A DNA stretch of 64,000 bases from a bacterium (GTDB taxonomy: Bacteria; Hinthialibacterota; Hinthialibacteria; Hinthialibacterales; Hinthialibacteraceae). Made by a program: the position numbers and the translations under genes. Positions 16,556 through 30,201 of the stretch are shown here, in pieces. Position 1 is the stretch's first letter; each line of letters opens with the position of its first letter. The notes under the pieces were generated by a model, which was not told the DNA's origin, ran no database searches, and saw nothing but the letters and a program-made list of their open reading frames with translations. Where the stretch lies: the NCBI GenBank assembly GCA_963662285.2, contig CAXXMV010000006.1, positions 1,632,001 to 1,696,000 of the forward strand, given 5' to 3'.

Positions 16556-18952
16556 TTATCTCAAAAGATCAAGAAACATGTTGTTATACAAGTTATTGGC
16601 TTGAGATTGAACATTGATATTGCTTTGCAGAAGCATCTGGTTCAATGAGTTCCGGGTTGATTCTCTGGCGAAGTCGGCATCCATAATTCTTGATCGGGAT
16701 GCAAGTAGATTTTCAGAAGCGACGGATAAATTATTGGCGGTCGCTTCGAGCCGGTTGGTGACGGCGCCAATTTCTCCGCGCGTCTGGTTAACTTGTTCCA
16801 TGGCCTGATCAACAATAGCCAGCGCTTCATCAACGCCGCCTGCTTCAGTTATGTCAATATCATTGAGCGACCGGCCTTTTCCTAAACCTAATGATCCAGG
16901 GCGTACGTCGCCAAACCTCATGCCCATTCGATCTCCGGCGTTGGCGCCAATCTGGAAATTGGCCTCCCGGCTTACAGCGGATATGACTACAGTGCTGAAT
17001 GCTCCCTCGCCCGCATCGGGGACATTGACGTTGGCGTCAAAATCAAGCGTTAGCGTTTCACCCTGACGGATGCCATTGTTAAATGTTACATCCTGCGCGC
17101 CCGCTCCAAACCGGACATTGGGACCGCCATTAAGGGAACCGCTGAACTCTTCGCGGGTAACGTTAATTTCATCAGTTCCATTGCTGAGGTTATCGCCCAT
17201 ACGTAAGGTTATCTGTGAAGCGCCTGCGCCGTTTGAATCGCCGGGGCGTCCATAGAGAGTGGCATTTTCGCCAGCCCTAACTCGTTGCGCCGGGCCGCCA
17301 TTTACCCTTACCGTGGCTTGTTGATCGTTGCCTGCTGTTACGGTGTTGGCTGAATCTGAAATTGTGGCGAAGGTTCCACCTCCGGCGGAGCGGTCGTTAA
17401 CCGTGATGTTGAAATTGGATTGTGATGTTCCGGCGACGTCATCCACCAGTTGAAGGTTGCCGCCGGATGTCAACCGGGCGGTGGCGTCTTCAAAGCCGCT
17501 TTGTCTGCCAATGCCTCCAGCGGCGTTGGTGCGGTCACGAACATTCAGTTCGTCAACCAGGTCTTGTATGGTTACAGCTGCGCCGTTGCCCGCTGACCCA
17601 TCAACATTGGATACGGTTATGGTATTGGTGAAGGTTGATCCATCGGCGTTGGTTCCATTGATGCTGATAGTATCGCCTTGAGCCAGGGTTGCGCCATTGA
17701 ATACTGAACCGATCAGGTTGGTTGTTAAATCCGCTGCTCCTCCGCCAGCTTGTTGGAAGGAGACGTTGCTTTCAACTACCCGCGCCTGGGCTTGGGTGAC
17801 ATCGGAAACCTCTATGGTCAGCGTTCCGGTATCGAAGGTATTGCCCGTGATGGCGGTGACGGCGTTGCCCACCTGGGCGCCGGTAGCTGCGCCGCCGATT
17901 TCTGCGGCGCGGGTGGTTGCGGTTGTATTTTGAACTCGGTTATTTGCATCAAGGGATGTGAAATTTACATTGAAATCAGAAACTCCAGTCACCGCGCCGT
18001 TGGAGAACTCCATGCGTCCAGTAGTTGCGTTGAATGAAACGTTGGTTTCAGCCGCATTGGTTCCAGCGGCGCTATTGACGCCTTGTTCCATTTCGGCGGC
18101 GTCAATCGATGCTTGGATGGCATCGGCCAGACTGGTTCCGGCGCCTCCACCTCCGGCGATATCTGATCCCGCGGATATTTGGAATGAACCGGAAAATTCC
18201 GTCACGCCATCAGCCAACACGCCGCTGAAGGCAATAGTTCCACCAGCCTGGAGCGCCGCTCCGTTGAATGTCACATTGGTAAGGTTCTCACCAGCAGCTG
18301 CGGCGCCGGTTCCATCATCGAAGGTTCCCTGAGTGACGGCGATATCCTGTTGATTTTGGATTCCGGCGTTGATTGTTGCCGCGCCGGGATCATTTCCGCT
18401 GACAATAGTAGCTGAACCTTCCTGGACGCGGGTGATATTGAAAAAGTTTTCCCGTGTGGTCAGGTCGCTATCATCAACATTAACTCCCATATCGGGGGTT
18501 CCCGGACGGATTCCGGCGCTTGAATCGAAATCACCATTTAAGAGAGTATTGGATCCGAATTGAGTAGTATTGGCGATGCGGCCTATTTCATCAACATATT
18601 GATTAATCTCTAATTGAATGGCTTGTTGAGCGCTTTGATCCAATACTCCGGTATTGCCGGATTGAACCACTAACTCACGTATACGCTGGAGGTTTTGGTT
18701 GACCGTATCGAGCGATGAATCAGCCACATTGGCCAGATTTATACCGGTTTGAGTGGCATCGAAAGCTTCTCCTAATCCTCGAAACTGGCTGTTAAGCCGA
18801 TTGGCGATGCTCAGACCAGCTGCATCGTCACCCGCCTGATTGATGCGAAGACCTGAGGTGAGGCGATTCATATTGGTGTTGATAGAACGGTTGAGACCAA
18901 TAAGGTTTTGAATAGAAGATAATGAACTTAGGTTGTTGTTGATACTAGTCAT
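16556..18952 (-). CDS. fliC: Large flagellin (798 aa)
   Basis: N-terminus RLTSGLRINQAGDDAAGL, LQRIREL; C-terminus FQIGAN, RGEIGAVTNRLE, SRIMDADFA. Confidence 0.92.
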   Translation of the reverse strand: MTSINNNLSSLSSIQNLIGLNRSINTNMNRLTSGLRINQAGDDAAGLSIANRLNSQFRGLGEAFDATQTGINLANVADSSLDTVNQNLQRIRELVVQSGNTGVLDQSAQQAIQLEINQYVDEIGRIANTTQFGSNTLLNGDFDSSAGIRPGTPDMGVNVDDSDLTTRENFFNITRVQEGSATIVSGNDPGAATINAGIQNQQDIAVTQGTFDDGTGAAAAGENLTNVTFNGAALQAGGTIAFSGVLADGVTEFSGSFQISAGSDIAGGGGAGTSLADAIQASIDAAEMEQGVNSAAGTNAAETNVSFNATTGRMEFSNGAVTGVSDFNVNFTSLDANNRVQNTTATTRAAEIGGAATGAQVGNAVTAITGNTFDTGTLTIEVSDVTQAQARVVESNVSFQQAGGGAADLTTNLIGSVFNGATLAQGDTISINGTNADGSTFTNTITVSNVDGSAGNGAAVTIQDLVDELNVRDRTNAAGGIGRQSGFEDATARLTSGGNLQLVDDVAGTSQSNFNITVNDRSAGGGTFATISDSANTVTAGNDQQATVRVNGGPAQRVRAGENATLYGRPGDSNGAGASQITLRMGDNLSNGTDEINVTREEFSGSLNGGPNVRFGAGAQDVTFNNGIRQGETLTLDFDANVNVPDAGEGAFSTVVISAVSREANFQIGANAGDRMGMRFGDVRPGSLGLGKGRSLNDIDITEAGGVDEALAIVDQAMEQVNQTRGEIGAVTNRLEATANNLSVASENLLASRSRIMDADFARESTRNSLNQMLLQSNINVQSQANNLYNNMFLDLLR

Positions 18953-19101
18953 GATCTTTTCTCCTGAATGAACGCTCCGTTTTTTAATGAAATACAGAGT
19001 GTATTATATTTTATCATTTTTATACCATGTTATACAAGCGATAAATTACATTATGTTTACTAATATAAAGTACATTGATGCAATATTTGTTTGCAACCAG
19101 A

Positions 19102-21441
19102 TCATGGAAGATCTAACAGGATTTGCAATACTGCTTGCGGCATAGAGTTAGCTTGCGCCAACACTGCGCTTTGCGCTTGCAACATAACAGTATTTAAGGC
19201 TAATTCTGTAGTTTCCTGTGCTATATCAGCGCTGACAATGCTGGTATGTGCGTTCTCAATGTCTAATGAGGCTAAATCGAGAGTTTCTATTGCATCGTCC
19301 AGGCGGGAAGCAAAAGCGCCTAATCTGGCGCTGAAACCATTAACTTGTTCCAGGGCGTCATCAATTATAGTCAAGGCGGCGGTAGCGCCAGATGCGGTAG
19401 TCACATTTATGCTGTCTAAATTATTAGTTGAGTTGCTTCCTAAGTTTTCTGAACGCAAGTCAGCAAAGATGAATAATTTCTGGCTGTTGGAATCTTTGCC
19501 GATTTGGAAATTAACTGCATTGCTGGTGGTTGAGAGAACGAACGTTTCACCCCCCGATGATGCAAGGGTTGTGGCATCCAGGATGGAATCGAAATCAAGT
19601 GTAACCTGTTGGAATTTCTTAATGGGGTAAATAGAAGCTTGACCGGCGGTGAATTGCACTGCCTGGTCTCCATTTTGGAATGTGACTATTTCGCCGCCAT
19701 TCAAACTACCGACAAACTCTTTGGCGGAAGTCTCCAATTGATCATCGCCTGCAGCGAGTCCCGTGCCTAACCTGATAGTAACTTCCGGATTTGGACCGCC
19801 GGATAGATTAACGCCTTCCAGAGTTACAACTTGCCCGGCATCGACCTGCTGCGCCGCGCCTCCATCAATTGAAACGGTAGCTTTTTCTCTGGAGCCTGCC
19901 GCATCAACTGTAGAATTTACGGTTTGGCCTCCAGCGCTCACAATTATTTGCAGATTGGTTGTTGAATCTTTTCCAATATCATCAATTAATTGAATTTCAC
20001 CTGCGCCGGTTAGAGTGGCGATGGCGCCGTTAAATCCCCGGCTGGTCAGGCTTTGATCCCGGTTGTTTAATTCTTTAATTAAACCGGAATATGTTTCAAT
20101 AATTCCATCTCCGACGCCTGTATCGAATCCGACGGTGTAAGTAGTAGTAAAGGTGCTGCCATCAGATTCCGTGCCATTGATTTGGAAAGTACTGCCCATG
20201 ACGATAGATACGCCATTGAGCAACGAGTCGCTTAAACTGGTGGTATTGAATACAGGTCCGCCGCCATTACGGTCAAAATTGTTGCTGGTAGTAATTTGCC
20301 GTCTCTGCTCAGCGATAATATTACTTACCGTAATATCGAAGGTTCCTGAGTCAAAGGTTGAACCTGTTATGGCGGTTACGCTATTACCAATCAGAGCTTC
20401 AGATATCGTTCCCCCTACTTCCTGGTTATAAATGTTGGTTGCTCTATCGATATCAAAAGTAGTTCGAATAGTTCCCGCCGAATTTCTGACGGCGAAATCG
20501 ATATCGAATTCGGAAATGTTCTGGTCTGTTCCACTGTTGAACTCTAATCGTCCGTTGGCGGTAAGAGCAACGTTTGTTTCCAGTACACCGGTTCCTTCAA
20601 TACCGATATCGTTTTCTGCGGCGTTTATGGAAGCCTGTATGGTATTAATAAGGGTAGTTACGGTGTTTCCTGCCATGACGGATAGCGTACCGCTGAAAAA
20701 AGTGGTTCCATCAGCCAAGACGCCGGAGAAGGTAATATAGTCCATCGAATTTAAGGTAACCCGGTTCATCGAGGTTGCAGCTAAATTGTTGCCGCCAACC
20801 GCCGCGATTCCACCATTAATTAATTGTCCTGTCGACACGGCGATATCGGTAGCGGCGGAAATTCCGGTATGGAAGGTTCCGTCGCCTGCGTCTTTAATTT
20901 CAGTGGTTCCTGAGTCGGTTACGCCGATATTTAAGTATGAACGTCCCGAAAGTAAACTGGTTGCATTGGGACCGAATGATAAACTGGCGCCAAAGTCGCG
21001 CGTACCGCTTTTGAAATTTACGTCGGTGGTTAATGATCCGTTGAGCAGAAATTTATTGCCGAATTTGGTTGTGTTGGCGATTTCATTTAAGGCTTCAATT
21101 TTCTCCTGGATAACGGCCTGTTGGGCGCCGCTTCCACCTGCCGCGGCAACGGCGGCAACACGGATATCATTTAATAGACTAACAATCTGATCAGTTGCGC
21201 TTGAAGCAGTAGCAGTTAAGTTAATAGCTTCCTGGGTATTTTCGGATGCCCGGCTGAGACCACGGAATTGTGTTTCCAGTTGATTACTAAGAATATATCC
21301 GCCAGGATCATCTTTGGCGCTCTTGATGCGAAGCCCTGAACTGATCCTTTCTAGATTAGTCGCGATTCGATTGTCTGTATTATTTAGCCGTCCAATTATT
21401 TGTAAGGCGCTGATATTAGTGCGGATACTTTCAATAACCAT
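19102..21441 (-). CDS. fliC: Large divergent flagellin (779 aa)
   Basis: ERISSGLRIKSAKDDPGG, TKFGNKFLLNG, FQIG, ARLGAFASRL, ADIAQE...QAQSAVLAQAN. Confidence 0.9.
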   Translation of the reverse strand: MVIESIRTNISALQIIGRLNNTDNRIATNLERISSGLRIKSAKDDPGGYILSNQLETQFRGLSRASENTQEAINLTATASSATDQIVSLLNDIRVAAVAAAGGSGAQQAVIQEKIEALNEIANTTKFGNKFLLNGSLTTDVNFKSGTRDFGASLSFGPNATSLLSGRSYLNIGVTDSGTTEIKDAGDGTFHTGISAATDIAVSTGQLINGGIAAVGGNNLAATSMNRVTLNSMDYITFSGVLADGTTFFSGTLSVMAGNTVTTLINTIQASINAAENDIGIEGTGVLETNVALTANGRLEFNSGTDQNISEFDIDFAVRNSAGTIRTTFDIDRATNIYNQEVGGTISEALIGNSVTAITGSTFDSGTFDITVSNIIAEQRRQITTSNNFDRNGGGPVFNTTSLSDSLLNGVSIVMGSTFQINGTESDGSTFTTTYTVGFDTGVGDGIIETYSGLIKELNNRDQSLTSRGFNGAIATLTGAGEIQLIDDIGKDSTTNLQIIVSAGGQTVNSTVDAAGSREKATVSIDGGAAQQVDAGQVVTLEGVNLSGGPNPEVTIRLGTGLAAGDDQLETSAKEFVGSLNGGEIVTFQNGDQAVQFTAGQASIYPIKKFQQVTLDFDSILDATTLASSGGETFVLSTTSNAVNFQIGKDSNSQKLFIFADLRSENLGSNSTNNLDSINVTTASGATAALTIIDDALEQVNGFSARLGAFASRLDDAIETLDLASLDIENAHTSIVSADIAQETTELALNTVMLQAQSAVLAQANSMPQAVLQILLDLP

Positions 21442-21496
21442 GATCGTTCTCCCACAATAGGTTTGAAAAAACTTAGGTAAAAAGAGAACTTTTTAC

Positions 21497-21523
21497 TAAA
21501 GTTTTTGATAAATTTGCCTATAA
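21497..21523 (+). promoter_or_regulatory. sigma28 (FliA)-like promoter pointing away from the flagellin genes, into the structured region
   Basis: TAAA-GTTTTTGATAAATTT(15 nt)-GCCTATAA; one mismatch to TAAA-N15-GCCGATAA. Confidence 0.55.
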
Positions 21524-21529
21524 TGAGAG

Positions 21530-22184
21530 AAGAGCATTTCTCATAAGATTTCATATGAAATCAGAGAACGGCTTAAAAAAGGCTATAAAACAGGCGTAGC
21601 GCCTGCGGACCTCGTCTGCACGTGCTGCGGCGGTCAATTAAGTCATAACTCTCACTTCTCTTGGCCGGGATGCGAAGTTATGACTTAATTTTTTAAGAAC
21701 TATATTTTCTACCGCAATTTATCTTCTCTCATCACATTTCTTTATTAATAACGCATTGGAGATGTGCTTATAAAAAGCATCTCCAGACGCGATGTTTTTC
21801 GTTACGTTCCTATCGTTGTCGTCGAAGGGCCTCGGAGATCTTCAACGACTGGCCAAAATTGGCGTAAGTTCCTTACATTGAAACAAACATTTCCTTACAG
21901 ACATAATCTATGGTCTGCGGCGGTCAGGATAAGCATCTTTCAGCCGGGATATTATAAATATATATATTTATAATATCCCGGTTAAACACGCCAATTTTAC
22001 AACAGGAACGCAAATATTTTTTGTTCTATCAGAGAGAAGACGGACGGTTTTCCACTGGAGGGAAAGGCGCCGTTCCCGCTGACCTCATCATTTGTCTCTT
22101 TCATTGCTGCGACGGTCAATTAAACCATGCTCACTTCACGAAAAACTTCTCGTTGGCCGGGATGCGAAGTTACTGCTTTTTTTT
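21530..22184 (+). ncRNA. Candidate large structured non-coding RNA or tandem cis-regulatory RNA (family not recognised)
   Basis: Three copies of CTGCGRCGGTCA...GCCGGGAT, nested long-range inverted repeats, several hairpins, and U-tracts at 21689-21694 and 22177-22184. G-U pairs mostly favour the plus strand. Confidence 0.5.
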
Positions 22185-22246
22185 AAATTCACTTTGAATA
22201 AATATACACCTCGATGAAAAGGTACTTTTCAAACTGTTCGTCATAT

Positions 22247-22274
22247 GTATCGGCATGACTTTAGAAAAACTTTA
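22247..22274 (-). promoter_or_regulatory. sigma28 (FliA/SigD) promoter pointing toward the flagellin genes
   Basis: Minus strand reads TAAA-GTTTTTCTAAAGTCAT(16 nt)-GCCGATAC. Confidence 0.75.
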
Positions 22275-22333
22275 GCTATTTTTTTTAATTTTTTCTAAAA
22301 AAAATAAAAAAATCTATTTATTAATAATAGATG

Positions 22334-22373
22334 TAAAAAAATGATTGACATTACCGATAATATCTGTTGTAAT
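22334..22373 (+). promoter_or_regulatory. Overlapping sigma28-like and sigma70-like promoters for the receiver-domain gene
   Basis: TAAA(22334)-N15-ACCGATAA(22353-22360) and TTGACA(22345)-N17-TGTAAT(22368-22373). Confidence 0.6.
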
Positions 22374-22506
22374 GTAATGTTCATTTTTCTATTTGTATGT
22401 AATGATATGATATGTACTAATAAATAATATAGTTAAATAGAATGTTTTGTTATAAATTTATAGAGTTATTTATTGAATTAATACTTTTAGAGAGCATGGA
22501 TTGTCA

Positions 22507-22890
22507 ATGCGTAAAACAGCGTTAGTGGTCGATGATGAACCAATTCCACGTACTTTTGTCTCTCATATCTTAAAATCCTTAGGATTTTTCGTTATTGAGG
22601 CCGATTCAGAGGAAAGCGCATGGGATAGTTTCGTCGAGAATGAAGAGGAATTGGATTATATAATTACCGAGATACATCTGGTAAGAGGTTCTGGACTAAA
22701 TTTATATCAAAGAATCAGGGACCGAAGCAAAAATAAGACGATAGTAGTATGTGATGATTGTTATGTTAACAATCATCAAGAAGTAATGGATGATCCCAAC
22801 GCAGTGCTGCTGGTTAAACCTTTTCCCGTGGACACCTTAATTGAGACTACCAATTTTACCAAACATAATAATAAAATAATATCAAGCTGA
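22507..22890 (+). CDS. Single-domain response-regulator receiver, atypical (phosphoacceptor Asp replaced by Glu)
   Basis: ALVVDDE...DYIITEIHL..GSG...LVKPF; ATG at 22507 chosen over TTG at 22501. Confidence 0.8.
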   Translation: MRKTALVVDDEPIPRTFVSHILKSLGFFVIEADSEESAWDSFVENEEELDYIITEIHLVRGSGLNLYQRIRDRSKNKTIVVCDDCYVNNHQEVMDDPNAVLLVKPFPVDTLIETTNFTKHNNKIISS

Positions 22891-29470: not shown

Positions 29471-30201
29471 TGTTAATGACGGCGCTCATAATGAATTTAT
29501 TGAATAACCGATGGTATTTGATCAAACTCTTATTTGCCTGTTTTTCTATTGTTTTGCTCATAGGTCTAGGCTTTCTATCTTACCAAAGAGAAGGAATTCT
29601 TTATCTCATCATTAATAGCGATCTGTCTGCTGCGGATCGAATTGAAAGTATAAGAGATCATTTCCTCTCCTATGGGGCTTTTGCTCCTTTGATCTATGTT
29701 ATTTTCGTCATAATCGAGGTGGTCGTCGCTCCACTGCCGGGTCTGATGTTATATGCTCCGGGAGGCATGATTTTCGGCGGATTTCTGGGAGGCCTTCTGT
29801 CACTGATCGGGAATATCATTGGAGCGGGAATCGCTCATCAAATTGGCCGTATTTTGGGGCAGCCTTTTGTTGAGAAATTTCTAGAAAAAAAGTCATTGAA
29901 TGATTACAACCGCAGGATTTCAGATAACGGGATTTGGATCGTTTTTCTATTAAGAGTGAATCCATTCACTTCTTCAGACCTTGTATCATACACAGCCGGA
30001 TTAACCCGCATGAAAGTATGGAAATTGATGGTGGGAACCATGTTGGGTATGGCGCCATTATGTTGGATTCAGGCCTACTTTGCGTATGGGTTGCTGCAAG
30101 CGTTTCCCCAATTGATTTATCCATTAATCCTTGCTTGCGTGATCTATGCAGTCGTTATTATTTGGATAATCAAGAATGTGTTCAACGTTAAAAAAGTATA
30201 G
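29470..30201 (+). CDS. TVP38/TMEM64 (VTT/DedA-like) membrane protein
   Basis: VVVAPLPG...GGMIFG, LLRVNPF..DLVSY.AGL; hydrophobic. Confidence 0.85.
   Translation: MLMTALIMNLLNNRWYLIKLLFACFSIVLLIGLGFLSYQREGILYLIINSDLSAADRIESIRDHFLSYGAFAPLIYVIFVIIEVVVAPLPGLMLYAPGGMIFGGFLGGLLSLIGNIIGAGIAHQIGRILGQPFVEKFLEKKSLNDYNRRISDNGIWIVFLLRVNPFTSSDLVSYTAGLTRMKVWKLMVGTMLGMAPLCWIQAYFAYGLLQAFPQLIYPLILACVIYAVVIIWIIKNVFNVKKV

Follow-up and report, generated by a model that had tools for sequence, protein, structure and literature searches.

Introduction

Non-coding RNAs under the control of the late flagellar sigma factor are described in Escherichia coli (UhpU, MotR, FliX and FlgO; PMC10578931) and in Campylobacter jejuni (CJnc170/FlmR and its paralogue CJnc10; PMC11187230), and in the parts of these two papers on which we draw they are thought to feed back on flagellar synthesis. 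In this work we analyse a 64,000-nucleotide (nt) stretch of a bacterial genome, hereafter the window (positions 1,632,001 to 1,696,000 of contig CAXXMV010000006.1, assembly GCA_963662285.2, phylum Hinthialibacterota), where a repeated two-box motif upstream of a tandem pair of flagellin genes belongs to a structured RNA element that resembles these RNAs in its sigma-28 (FliA)-type promoter and in its paralogous copies. The resemblance does not extend to sequence or structure (Rfam is negative), and the E. coli RNAs are derived from untranslated regions (PMC10578931) and FlmR is 47 nt long (PMC11187230), as far as these accounts go, whereas the element described here would be a stand-alone unit of about 165 nt, with a covarying two-helix fold and tandem copies, placed between convergent sigma-28-type promoters and with a sigma-28 dependence suggested by its promoter motif.

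A second set of comparisons is offered by the RNAs of the CsrA system. The decoy RNAs CsrB/CsrC and RsmX/Y/Z of Gammaproteobacteria, as outlined in PMC7652899, carry invariant GGA loops on variable stems, and the present locus is similar to them in this respect, in the presence of csrA in the genome and in a loop resembling the core selected by CsrA in SELEX experiments. It differs from such sponges in that GGA is not enriched and only some 4-6 of them per locus are conserved, in its sigma-28-type (instead of BarA/UvrY-dependent) promoter and in belonging to a lineage that has FliW. According to the sections of the same review that deal with FliW, fliW is absent from Gammaproteobacteria and anti-correlated with barA-uvrY (the drivers of the Csr small RNAs), and in FliW lineages the control of CsrA is attributed to a partner-switch between proteins, not to decoy RNAs (PMC7652899). 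The flagellin-FliW-CsrA circuit is represented by the leaders of hag in Bacillus subtilis and flaA in C. jejuni (in the portions of PMC7652899 and PMC4894983 used here); two loops of our element, those of box B and of hairpin H, copy motifs of such leaders, although the element is a separate RNA of the opposite strand and not the leader of a flagellin gene. Finally, AsflhD of E. coli, as summarised in bioRxiv 10.1101/2021.05.11.443715, is an antisense RNA over the leader of a motility gene, to which our locus is comparable, with the differences that the overlap depends here on a probable leader starting at a second promoter (P2) and that the RNA is highly structured, loop-invariant and present in tandem copies.

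Results

A bipartite motif repeated three times upstream of the flagellin genes

The element occupies the spacer at 21442-22500, upstream of both minus-strand flagellin genes. An initial annotation of the window had described there three copies of a motif made of a box A (CTGCGRCGGTCA) and a box B (GCCGGGAT), each coupled to a competing hairpin, and had proposed an undescribed tandem RNA switch of the flagellar regulon. As a description of the letters this is accurate: box A is read at 21625-21636, 21915-21926 and 22107-22118, box B at 21664-21671, 21943-21950 and 22156-22163, and a repeat search recovers the 20-mer TTGGCCGGGATGCGAAGTTA, identical at 21661-21680 and 22153-22172. The 15-bp stem of copy 1 (21636-21650/21676-21690) is perfect, with the first two T of the T-run at 21689-21694 lying within the stem; the palindrome of copy 2 is also perfect, centred at 21962/21963; and in copy 3 AACTTC (22144-22149) faces GAAGTT (22166-22171), ahead of a T8 run at 22177-22184.

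The pattern (box A, 15 to 45 nt, box B) has three forward matches in the whole genome (7,286,025 bases), all of them in this spacer, and since there are none in the reverse orientation and none for a reversed control, it stands above chance. A miniature inverted-repeat transposable element or other dispersed repeat is ruled out: the three copies found genome-wide are all here, relatives carry one locus per genome, and a blastn search of the whole genome with the spacer returned self-matches only.

Unit 1 is a covarying plus-strand structure

Copy 1 is contained in a structure of two helices that we call unit 1 (Table 1). The first seven nt of box A (CUGCGGC) constitute the 3' strand of helix 1, in which, across the family, an upstream GGCGUAGC pairs with GCUGCGGC, and box B is part of the apical region of the long hairpin (21649-21677), which is invariant in the family. 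In 41 units aligned to the covariance model (a fit that flatters pairing counts), standard pairs occupy 92.5% of the cells of helix 1 and the long hairpin (helix 2), against 83.5% after shuffling and 34-45% after sliding, and changes on both sides are found in 21 of the 31 pairs overall, including 7/10 pairs of helix 1 and 14/17 stem pairs of the long hairpin. We judge this covariation signal to be real because the slid and shuffled controls pair less. The strand of unit 1 is assigned as plus because G.U pairs are far commoner than A.C (109 versus 9); the folding energy of the plus strand is -63.2 kcal/mol (z -6.9), with helix 1 formed, and that of the minus strand -53.0 kcal/mol (z -4.7), without helix 1.

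A coding reading is rejected, given that stop-to-stop frames are alike on both strands only over the invariant block, with starts and lengths that differ; a 2-nt indel is found inside this block in 2 of 12 genomes (a 2-nt insertion in both G000 and G017). The features looked for in a non-coding transcript with a defined 3' end are present in the sequence, namely no conserved open reading frame (ORF) and a hairpin followed by a T6-T7 run in 20 of the 27 unit-1 rows (the tail is TTAATTTTTT in 18 rows, with T6-T7 runs in two more), the U-run being interrupted in both sister families. Unit 1 can be read, on these features, as a stand-alone small RNA.

Conservation and novelty of the family

A covariance model built from copy 1 and searched in the genomes of the order and phylum matches 24 of the 26 genomes of the order (by family, and leaving out the window's genome, 17/19, 4/4 and 2/2) and none of the nine from the rest of the phylum. 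The exact bipartite pattern is more restricted (4/19 other genomes of the family, 0/41 outside it). When 185,579 species genomes were scanned with an 18-mer, for which about 17 chance matches are expected by our own arithmetic, 30 stretches were found, ten of them with the full layout, and a 23-mer scan of metagenomes gave three contigs. Rfam 15 has no match in the whole window at the gathering score, and at a permissive threshold the region 21400-22600 gives sub-threshold microRNA-like hairpins only (best 24.9 bits, against a threshold of 140). Literature searched for the motif strings returned unrelated primers only, and searches on these strings and on related systems turned up no description of the element.

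With no Rfam match, no dispersed repeat and strong covariation, the part of the initial annotation that claimed an undescribed, conserved and structured tandem RNA element of the flagellar regulon is upheld, whereas the riboswitch or attenuator architecture attached to it is not (see Discussion). We are confident that these sequences represent a real and previously uncatalogued family of structured non-coding RNAs, lying behind a flagellar promoter and in tandem paralogous copies.

Two sigma-28-type promoters flank the units

P1, directed away from the flagellin gene (Table 1), can in the window also be read as TAAAGTTT-N11-GCCTATAA. A P1-like motif is found in 23 of 24 loci, and its distance to the orthologous flagellin start is 51-78 nt in 21 of the 23. 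Both orientation and spacing agree with the sigma-28 consensus, as looked for in a sigma-28-dependent small RNA, and, as a check of orientation within the genome, the same motif, as TAAAGTTAGAAAATTAATTGCCGATAA, precedes an ORF matching FlgM. Transcription from P1 would start near 21530. Public RNA runs were searched, and none containing this stretch was listed.

P2 faces the RNA units and the flagellin genes, with the 5' end of its -35 box 833 nt from the flagellin ATG. With a relaxed pattern, a P2-like motif facing the units is seen in 19 of 23 loci, a count in which the G003 match is spurious (although P2 is otherwise seen in G003), both matches in one sister family are weak, and the misses correspond to contig ends, a masked stretch, or G006. 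The P2 signature GCCGATACATATGACGA has an exact match in a promoter-like site at -498 in G021, and similar sites are present in three other sampled flagellin upstream regions. No sigma-28 site occurs between the flagellin ATG and P1, and inspection by eye together with a scan revealed no convincing sigma-54 or sigma-70 flagellin promoter in this 55-nt gap. At other flagellin genes promoter-like sites lie 327-825 nt upstream (one in G000 at -327), which suggests that flagellin genes of these genomes normally have long leaders behind sigma-28 promoters. Since such leaders are usual, P2 is favoured as the promoter of the adjacent flagellin operon, and it is probably the start of a leader of about 0.8 kb.

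The order of features is constant across genera: the flagellin ATG, P1, a variable 60-100 nt, copy 1 ending in its hairpin and U-run, the small hairpin and its U-rich tail, the domain that CGUUCC/GGAACG closes (containing hairpin H and copy 2), copy 3, about 60 nt, and then P2 on the minus strand. The number of copies of the unit 2 and unit 3 type varies from one to three, G007 has a single unit between P1 and P2, and the loci of the two sister families are longer (1.0-1.6 kb).

Two loop motifs are common to the RNA and the flagellin leaders

The genome encodes fliW next to csrA, the latter at 77521-77679 of contig 1. Three other flagellin genes of the genome are preceded, 45-57 nt upstream of the start, by a hairpin whose loop holds GGA (GGCA-AGGA-UGCC or GGCA-CGGA-UGCC), and after it comes a Shine-Dalgarno sequence that also contains GGA. 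Such hairpins are located on G000 contig 2, outside the window, near 650101-650112 (-), near 713632-713643 (+) and upstream of 709386 (+), with a GGAGG Shine-Dalgarno sequence. These leaders have in this way the two-site layout (loop GGA plus Shine-Dalgarno GGA) of the B. subtilis hag leader, as the latter is presented in PMC7652899, and the layout is conserved in at least 11 genomes of the order. The leader hairpin of the order is GGCAAGGAUGCC; as GGCAMGGATGCC (GGCA[A/C]GGAUGCC) it is found in 24 of 26 genomes, and apart from a repeat family in G011 the controls are near zero; 13 of these matches, distributed over 11 genomes, are placed 42-57 nt ahead of flagellin N-terminal matches. The G011 genome has about 65 copies of GGCAAGGATGCC on many contigs, some in arrays 30-50 nt apart, a number without equal in the other 25 genomes, as if a CsrA-type motif were part of a dispersed or tandem repeat family there.

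Box B with its flanks, GGCCGGGAUGCG, equals GGCACGGAUGCC, the hairpin preceding the other flagellin genes of the order, at 9 of 12 positions, and box B agrees with the SELEX core CARGGAUG at 7 of 8 (the CsrA consensus being given as RUACARGGAUGU in the relevant part of PMC7652899), so that the loose resemblance to a CsrA site suggested at the outset holds as a lead. A CsrA-like loop motif and csrA itself, the pair expected of a decoy, are both present.

The second common motif is that of hairpin H. In each of the 15 genomes folded its loop retains GCCUCGGA, carried by stems that differ widely in sequence, and the invariant loop is GGCCUCGGA. In the form AAGGCCUCGGAAACC, and in sense orientation, the motif occurs in 5 of 20 sampled flagellin upstream regions from three families, and also twice in G000 contig 4, usually two times about 200 nt apart and 310-590 nt upstream of another flagellin paralogue, and four of these five regions also have sigma-28-like sites 498-825 nt upstream. 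Because the plus-strand RNA and the flagellin leaders have two loop motifs in common, a common trans-acting binder is indicated. A blastn comparison of the spacer with other flagellin upstream regions gave nothing significant.

The region of G000 contig 4 (29819-30465 (+), outside the window) is an intergenic region of about 870 nt before another flagellin gene, with a sigma-28-like site (TCAAGG...GCCGAAAA) and, near 29928-29950, a hairpin resembling a terminator; a 38-nt module that ends in AAAAGGCCUCGGAAACC is present there twice (29999 and 30214). Similar double modules are found in 5 of the 20 sampled flagellin upstream regions of relatives, and the region of G000 may contain a further RNA element of the flagellar system.

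Units 2 and 3 are looser

Besides hairpin H, the unit 2 domain contains the second box A (followed by GGA) and the second box B. Its closing helix recurs in relatives when inspected by eye; the alignment used for MAFFT and RNAalifold on unit 2 was too poor to resolve this long-range helix. The AT-rich palindrome, which had been proposed as the competing stem of copy 2, is missing from four aligned relatives and from 14 other unit-2 regions and occurs once in the genome; by this comparison it is an insertion private to the window's genome and not part of the conserved design. At the position of the small hairpin, relatives also have a hairpin and U-run, of other sequences.

Unit 3 is matched weakly by the covariance model in the window (16.3 bits, E 0.08) and better in relatives. 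The U-run after its hairpin is present in only some genomes. Pairing in units 2 and 3 is looser than in unit 1 (G.U 50 versus A.C 35), and no promoter of their own was recognised for either. We regard units 2 and 3 and hairpin H as probable tandem, looser paralogues or add-ons, which would be reached by read-through or from promoters not recognised here.

Table 1. Features of the flagellin-adjacent RNA locus, in window coordinates
Feature	Positions	Strand	Description
Flagellin gene B	16556..18952	-	798 amino acids; second of the tandem pair; ORF and Pfam Flagellin_N/Flagellin_C
Flagellin gene A	19102..21441	-	779 amino acids; ORF and Pfam Flagellin_N/Flagellin_C; ATG 55 nt from P1
P1	21497..21523	+	Sigma-28 (FliA)-type promoter by motif match, TAAAG-N14-GCCTATAA; directed away from the flagellin gene
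Unit 1 RNA	21530..21694	+	About 165 nt: variable 5' part, A-rich tract, helix 1, linker, long hairpin, U-run; covariance-model match 112.5 bits
Helix 1	21593..21631	+	GGCGUAGCGCCU (21593-21604) / ACGUGCUGCGGC (21620-21631), enclosing a small variable hairpin (21605-21619)
Linker	21632..21637	+	GGUCAA, last part of box A; almost without variation; able to pair with the apical UUGGCC
Long hairpin	21636..21694	+	15-bp perfect stem plus inner pairs, U-run 21689-21694; intrinsic-terminator-like end
Small hairpin	21758..21799	+	GGAGAUGUGC / GCAUCUCC, then a U-rich run; read from sequence
Unit 2 domain	21805..22010	+	Closed by CGUUCCU (21805-21811) / AGGAACG (22004-22010); U-run 22017-22022
Hairpin H	21818..21849	+	Variable stem, loop GGCCUCGGAGAU (21828-21839)
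Palindrome	21944..21981	.	AT-rich, perfect, 38 nt; starts inside the second box B
Unit 3	22056..22186	+	Paralogue of unit 1; box A 22107-22118, box B 22156-22163, stem 22144-22149/22166-22171, T8 22177-22184
P2	22247..22274	-	Sigma-28-type promoter, TAAAG-N15-GCCGATAC, then ATATGACGA; faces the RNA units and the flagellin genes

Neighbouring genes

On the plus-strand side the spacer is followed by a gene for a receiver-domain protein and then by an oxidoreductase gene, and in relatives the plus-strand downstream genes vary from locus to locus. The receiver-domain protein is a stand-alone one of 129 amino acids (22501-22890 (+)), found after the locus in the window's genome only; G006 has a receiver-like ORF, too, downstream of its locus.

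The 149-nt gap between the two flagellin genes (18953-19101 (-)) has no sigma-28-type site, and genes A and B may be co-transcribed. The leader of gene B contains ACGGAGC and the Shine-Dalgarno sequence CAGGAGA, 10 nt apart, a possible CsrA pair. In the region corresponding to 21442-21496 (-), relatives have in common a small AU-rich hairpin with a TTTTTG run, some 25-35 nt ahead of the ATG, together with the Shine-Dalgarno sequence GGGAGA, and no GGA-loop hairpin was found there, unlike at the other flagellin paralogues. Genomes of the order have about seven flagellin paralogues of 780-950 amino acids, among which the pair adjoining the RNA has the lowest Flagellin_N scores.

Discussion

A sigma-28-timed RNA that may mimic flagellin leaders

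The element probably helps to control flagellin synthesis. As to how, we tentatively prefer, over the other explanations considered here, a regulatory RNA whose timing is set by sigma-28, which imitates flagellin leaders towards CsrA (or towards another factor reading the same loops) and is antisense within a long flagellin leader, an explanation that we hold with somewhat more doubt than belief. The plus-strand RNA family would be transcribed from P1, divergently from the tandem flagellin pair and with no downstream gene under its control, and would most likely act on flagellin synthesis after sigma-28 release. Its invariant loops, GGCC-G-GGAUGC and GGCCUCGGA, appear to copy the GGA-loop motifs of the order's flagellin mRNA leaders, and because of this likeness the RNA would compete with the leaders for one RNA-binding factor, probably CsrA. 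Additionally, the RNA genes would lie antisense inside the flagellin leader that probably begins at P2, and owing to this placement, pairing or convergent transcription may add an effect in cis.

Several observations weigh against this explanation. GGA is not enriched on the plus strand (313 GGA versus 286 TCC over 19 loci, approximately one per 60 nt), and the many dense GGA motifs, mostly in hairpin loops, that characterise decoys are not found; among the conserved GGA sites, hairpin H is a clear GGA-in-loop hairpin, and unit 1 has one conserved GGA, with the predicted fold placing its GGGA partly in a 4-bp mini-stem instead of a small loop. Matches to the 11-mer GGCNNGGATGC are frequent in the genome (105, compared with 27 for the reversed control), the likeness between box B and the flagellin-leader hairpin is a post hoc observation, and the invariant stretch, at about 27 nt, exceeds what a CsrA site needs. 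CsrA is present in 35 of 35 genomes of the phylum, including 11 without the RNA, and since all 35 have both CsrA and flagellin, no correlation of presence and absence is possible. Finally, units 2 and 3 are loosely constrained, and the role of P2 as flagellin promoter is one that we infer.

A possible purely antisense action or interference

The closest competitor of a leader-mimicking RNA is pure cis-antisense action or transcriptional interference, in which the sigma-28-driven RNAs would pair with the P2 leader (leading to RNase III cleavage or processing) or the two transcriptions would collide, with the loops serving as sites where kissing interactions begin. It is consistent with the convergent sigma-28-type promoters that flank the units in 19 of 23 loci (the single-unit G007 included), with the fixed distance of 51-78 nt from P1 to the flagellin start and no closer sigma-28 site, and with the long leaders behind a P2-type signature at other flagellin genes, and AsflhD, opposite the flhDC leader in E. 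coli, provides a precedent in what is reported in bioRxiv 10.1101/2021.05.11.443715. Nevertheless, pairing by itself explains neither why loops and linkers are invariant across three families on covarying stems nor why the loop motifs reappear in other flagellin leaders; moreover, helix 1 is formed on the plus strand only, and the P2 transcript is itself conjectural. We consider this explanation unlikely.

Possible base-pairing in trans

Less probable still is a trans-acting base-pairing small RNA, possibly dependent on Hfq, whose CU-rich apical sequence CACUUCUCUU or box B would pair with the ribosome-binding regions of flagellar or other mRNAs. The sigma-28-type promoter, the terminator with its U-tail, the A-rich tract before helix 1 and the invariant exposed region would all suit such an RNA, hfq is present in the genome, and analogues are known in the sigma-28 small RNAs of E. 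coli and in FlmR of C. jejuni, in the parts of PMC10578931 and PMC11187230 that describe them. However, in 26 genomes no near-complementary site for box B exists beyond the units themselves, and in duplex energy the flagellin start regions rank between 543 and 3065 among 3979 crude start regions, which makes us regard this mode of action as improbable. The gene fliM, the best flagellar match (rank 2), was rejected as a trans target: the match falls in variable linker codons and is unconserved in the 24 relatives whose fliM N-terminus could be located. FlbT was not found in the genome, which is 92.5% complete.

A proposed switch between box pairing and termination

Transcription-terminating riboswitches, tandem ones included, combine covarying stems around invariant junction or loop nucleotides with a hairpin and U-run. 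The present element shares these features, the first of which is the pattern of aptamers, as well as the tandem copies, and it has a conserved structured domain with covariation, but it differs from such riboswitches in having no regulated downstream gene, no alternative helix that sequesters the terminator stem and no match to a known aptamer. The proposal of the initial annotation was that boxes A and B pair (CGGUCAA/UUGGCCG) in competition with the hairpin or terminator of each unit, and in the present setting the output would be antisense read-through towards P2. In its most far-reaching form, the units would be pseudoknot-forming sensors, with the linker GGUCRA paired to the loop UUGGCC, in which CsrA, a protein of that sort or a small ligand sets the balance between stopping and antisense run-through, across the flagellin leader, into P2; this, if true, would be a three-step, switch-gated transcriptional-interference device for flagellin.

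A-B pairing is possible. The two segments can pair in 96.4% of the cells, linker and loop are nearly invariant, and in five of the seven pairs the variation is confined to one side and preserves pairing (C/U opposite G, G/A opposite U); shuffles equal this pairing score because the box B side hardly varies. Of 31 units, 11 include the helix in the minimum-energy fold of their nascent RNA, and in G007 the last pair is, by eye, G-C instead of A-U, provided that the extra G of this genome is aligned. However, no aligned pair shows changes on both sides, and, again by eye, G006 breaks three of the seven pairs and G020 the terminal one. Furthermore, box A is mostly the 3' strand of helix 1 and not a partner of box B, and the conflict with another stem, claimed for every copy, amounts in unit 1 to an overlap of 2 nt (21636-21637) with the 15-bp stem, so that a helix of 7 bp, set against one of at least 15, cannot be an anti-terminator by sequestration. 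Still, the linker abuts the base of the 15-bp stem whose loop it must reach, and we infer that both probably cannot fully form together. The element is not the leader of a conserved same-strand gene, as the downstream plus-strand genes differ and P2 faces it. Together with the 2-nt overlap, this missing downstream gene makes the riboswitch or attenuator reading weak; there is also no Rfam riboswitch match, and unit 3 often lacks a U-run. The evidence speaks against the classical anti-terminator version, the element does not look like a riboswitch in its sequence features, and both forms of the switch seem to us very unlikely.

Weakest of all, to the point of being barely credible, is one large multi-domain RNA running from P1 to just before P2 (0.7 kb here, at most about 1.5 kb in the two sister families) with GGCC loop-loop or loop-linker contacts and possibly scaffold-like, for although units 2 and 3 have no recognisable promoters of their own, GGCC is present in all four loops and the sister families combine an interrupted U-run after unit 1 with longer loci, a strong hairpin and T6-T7 run end unit 1 in 20 of 27 rows and units 2 and 3, one to three in number, are conserved only loosely.

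Significance

Whatever its mechanism, the element constitutes a new RNA family, which covaries well and is suitable for Rfam. Unusually, it lies between two flagellar promoters that converge, and within what is probably a long leader of flagellin genes. If the RNA is indeed timed by sigma-28 and copies the loops of flagellin leaders, it would add an RNA layer to the FliW-CsrA circuit, in an uncultured phylum.

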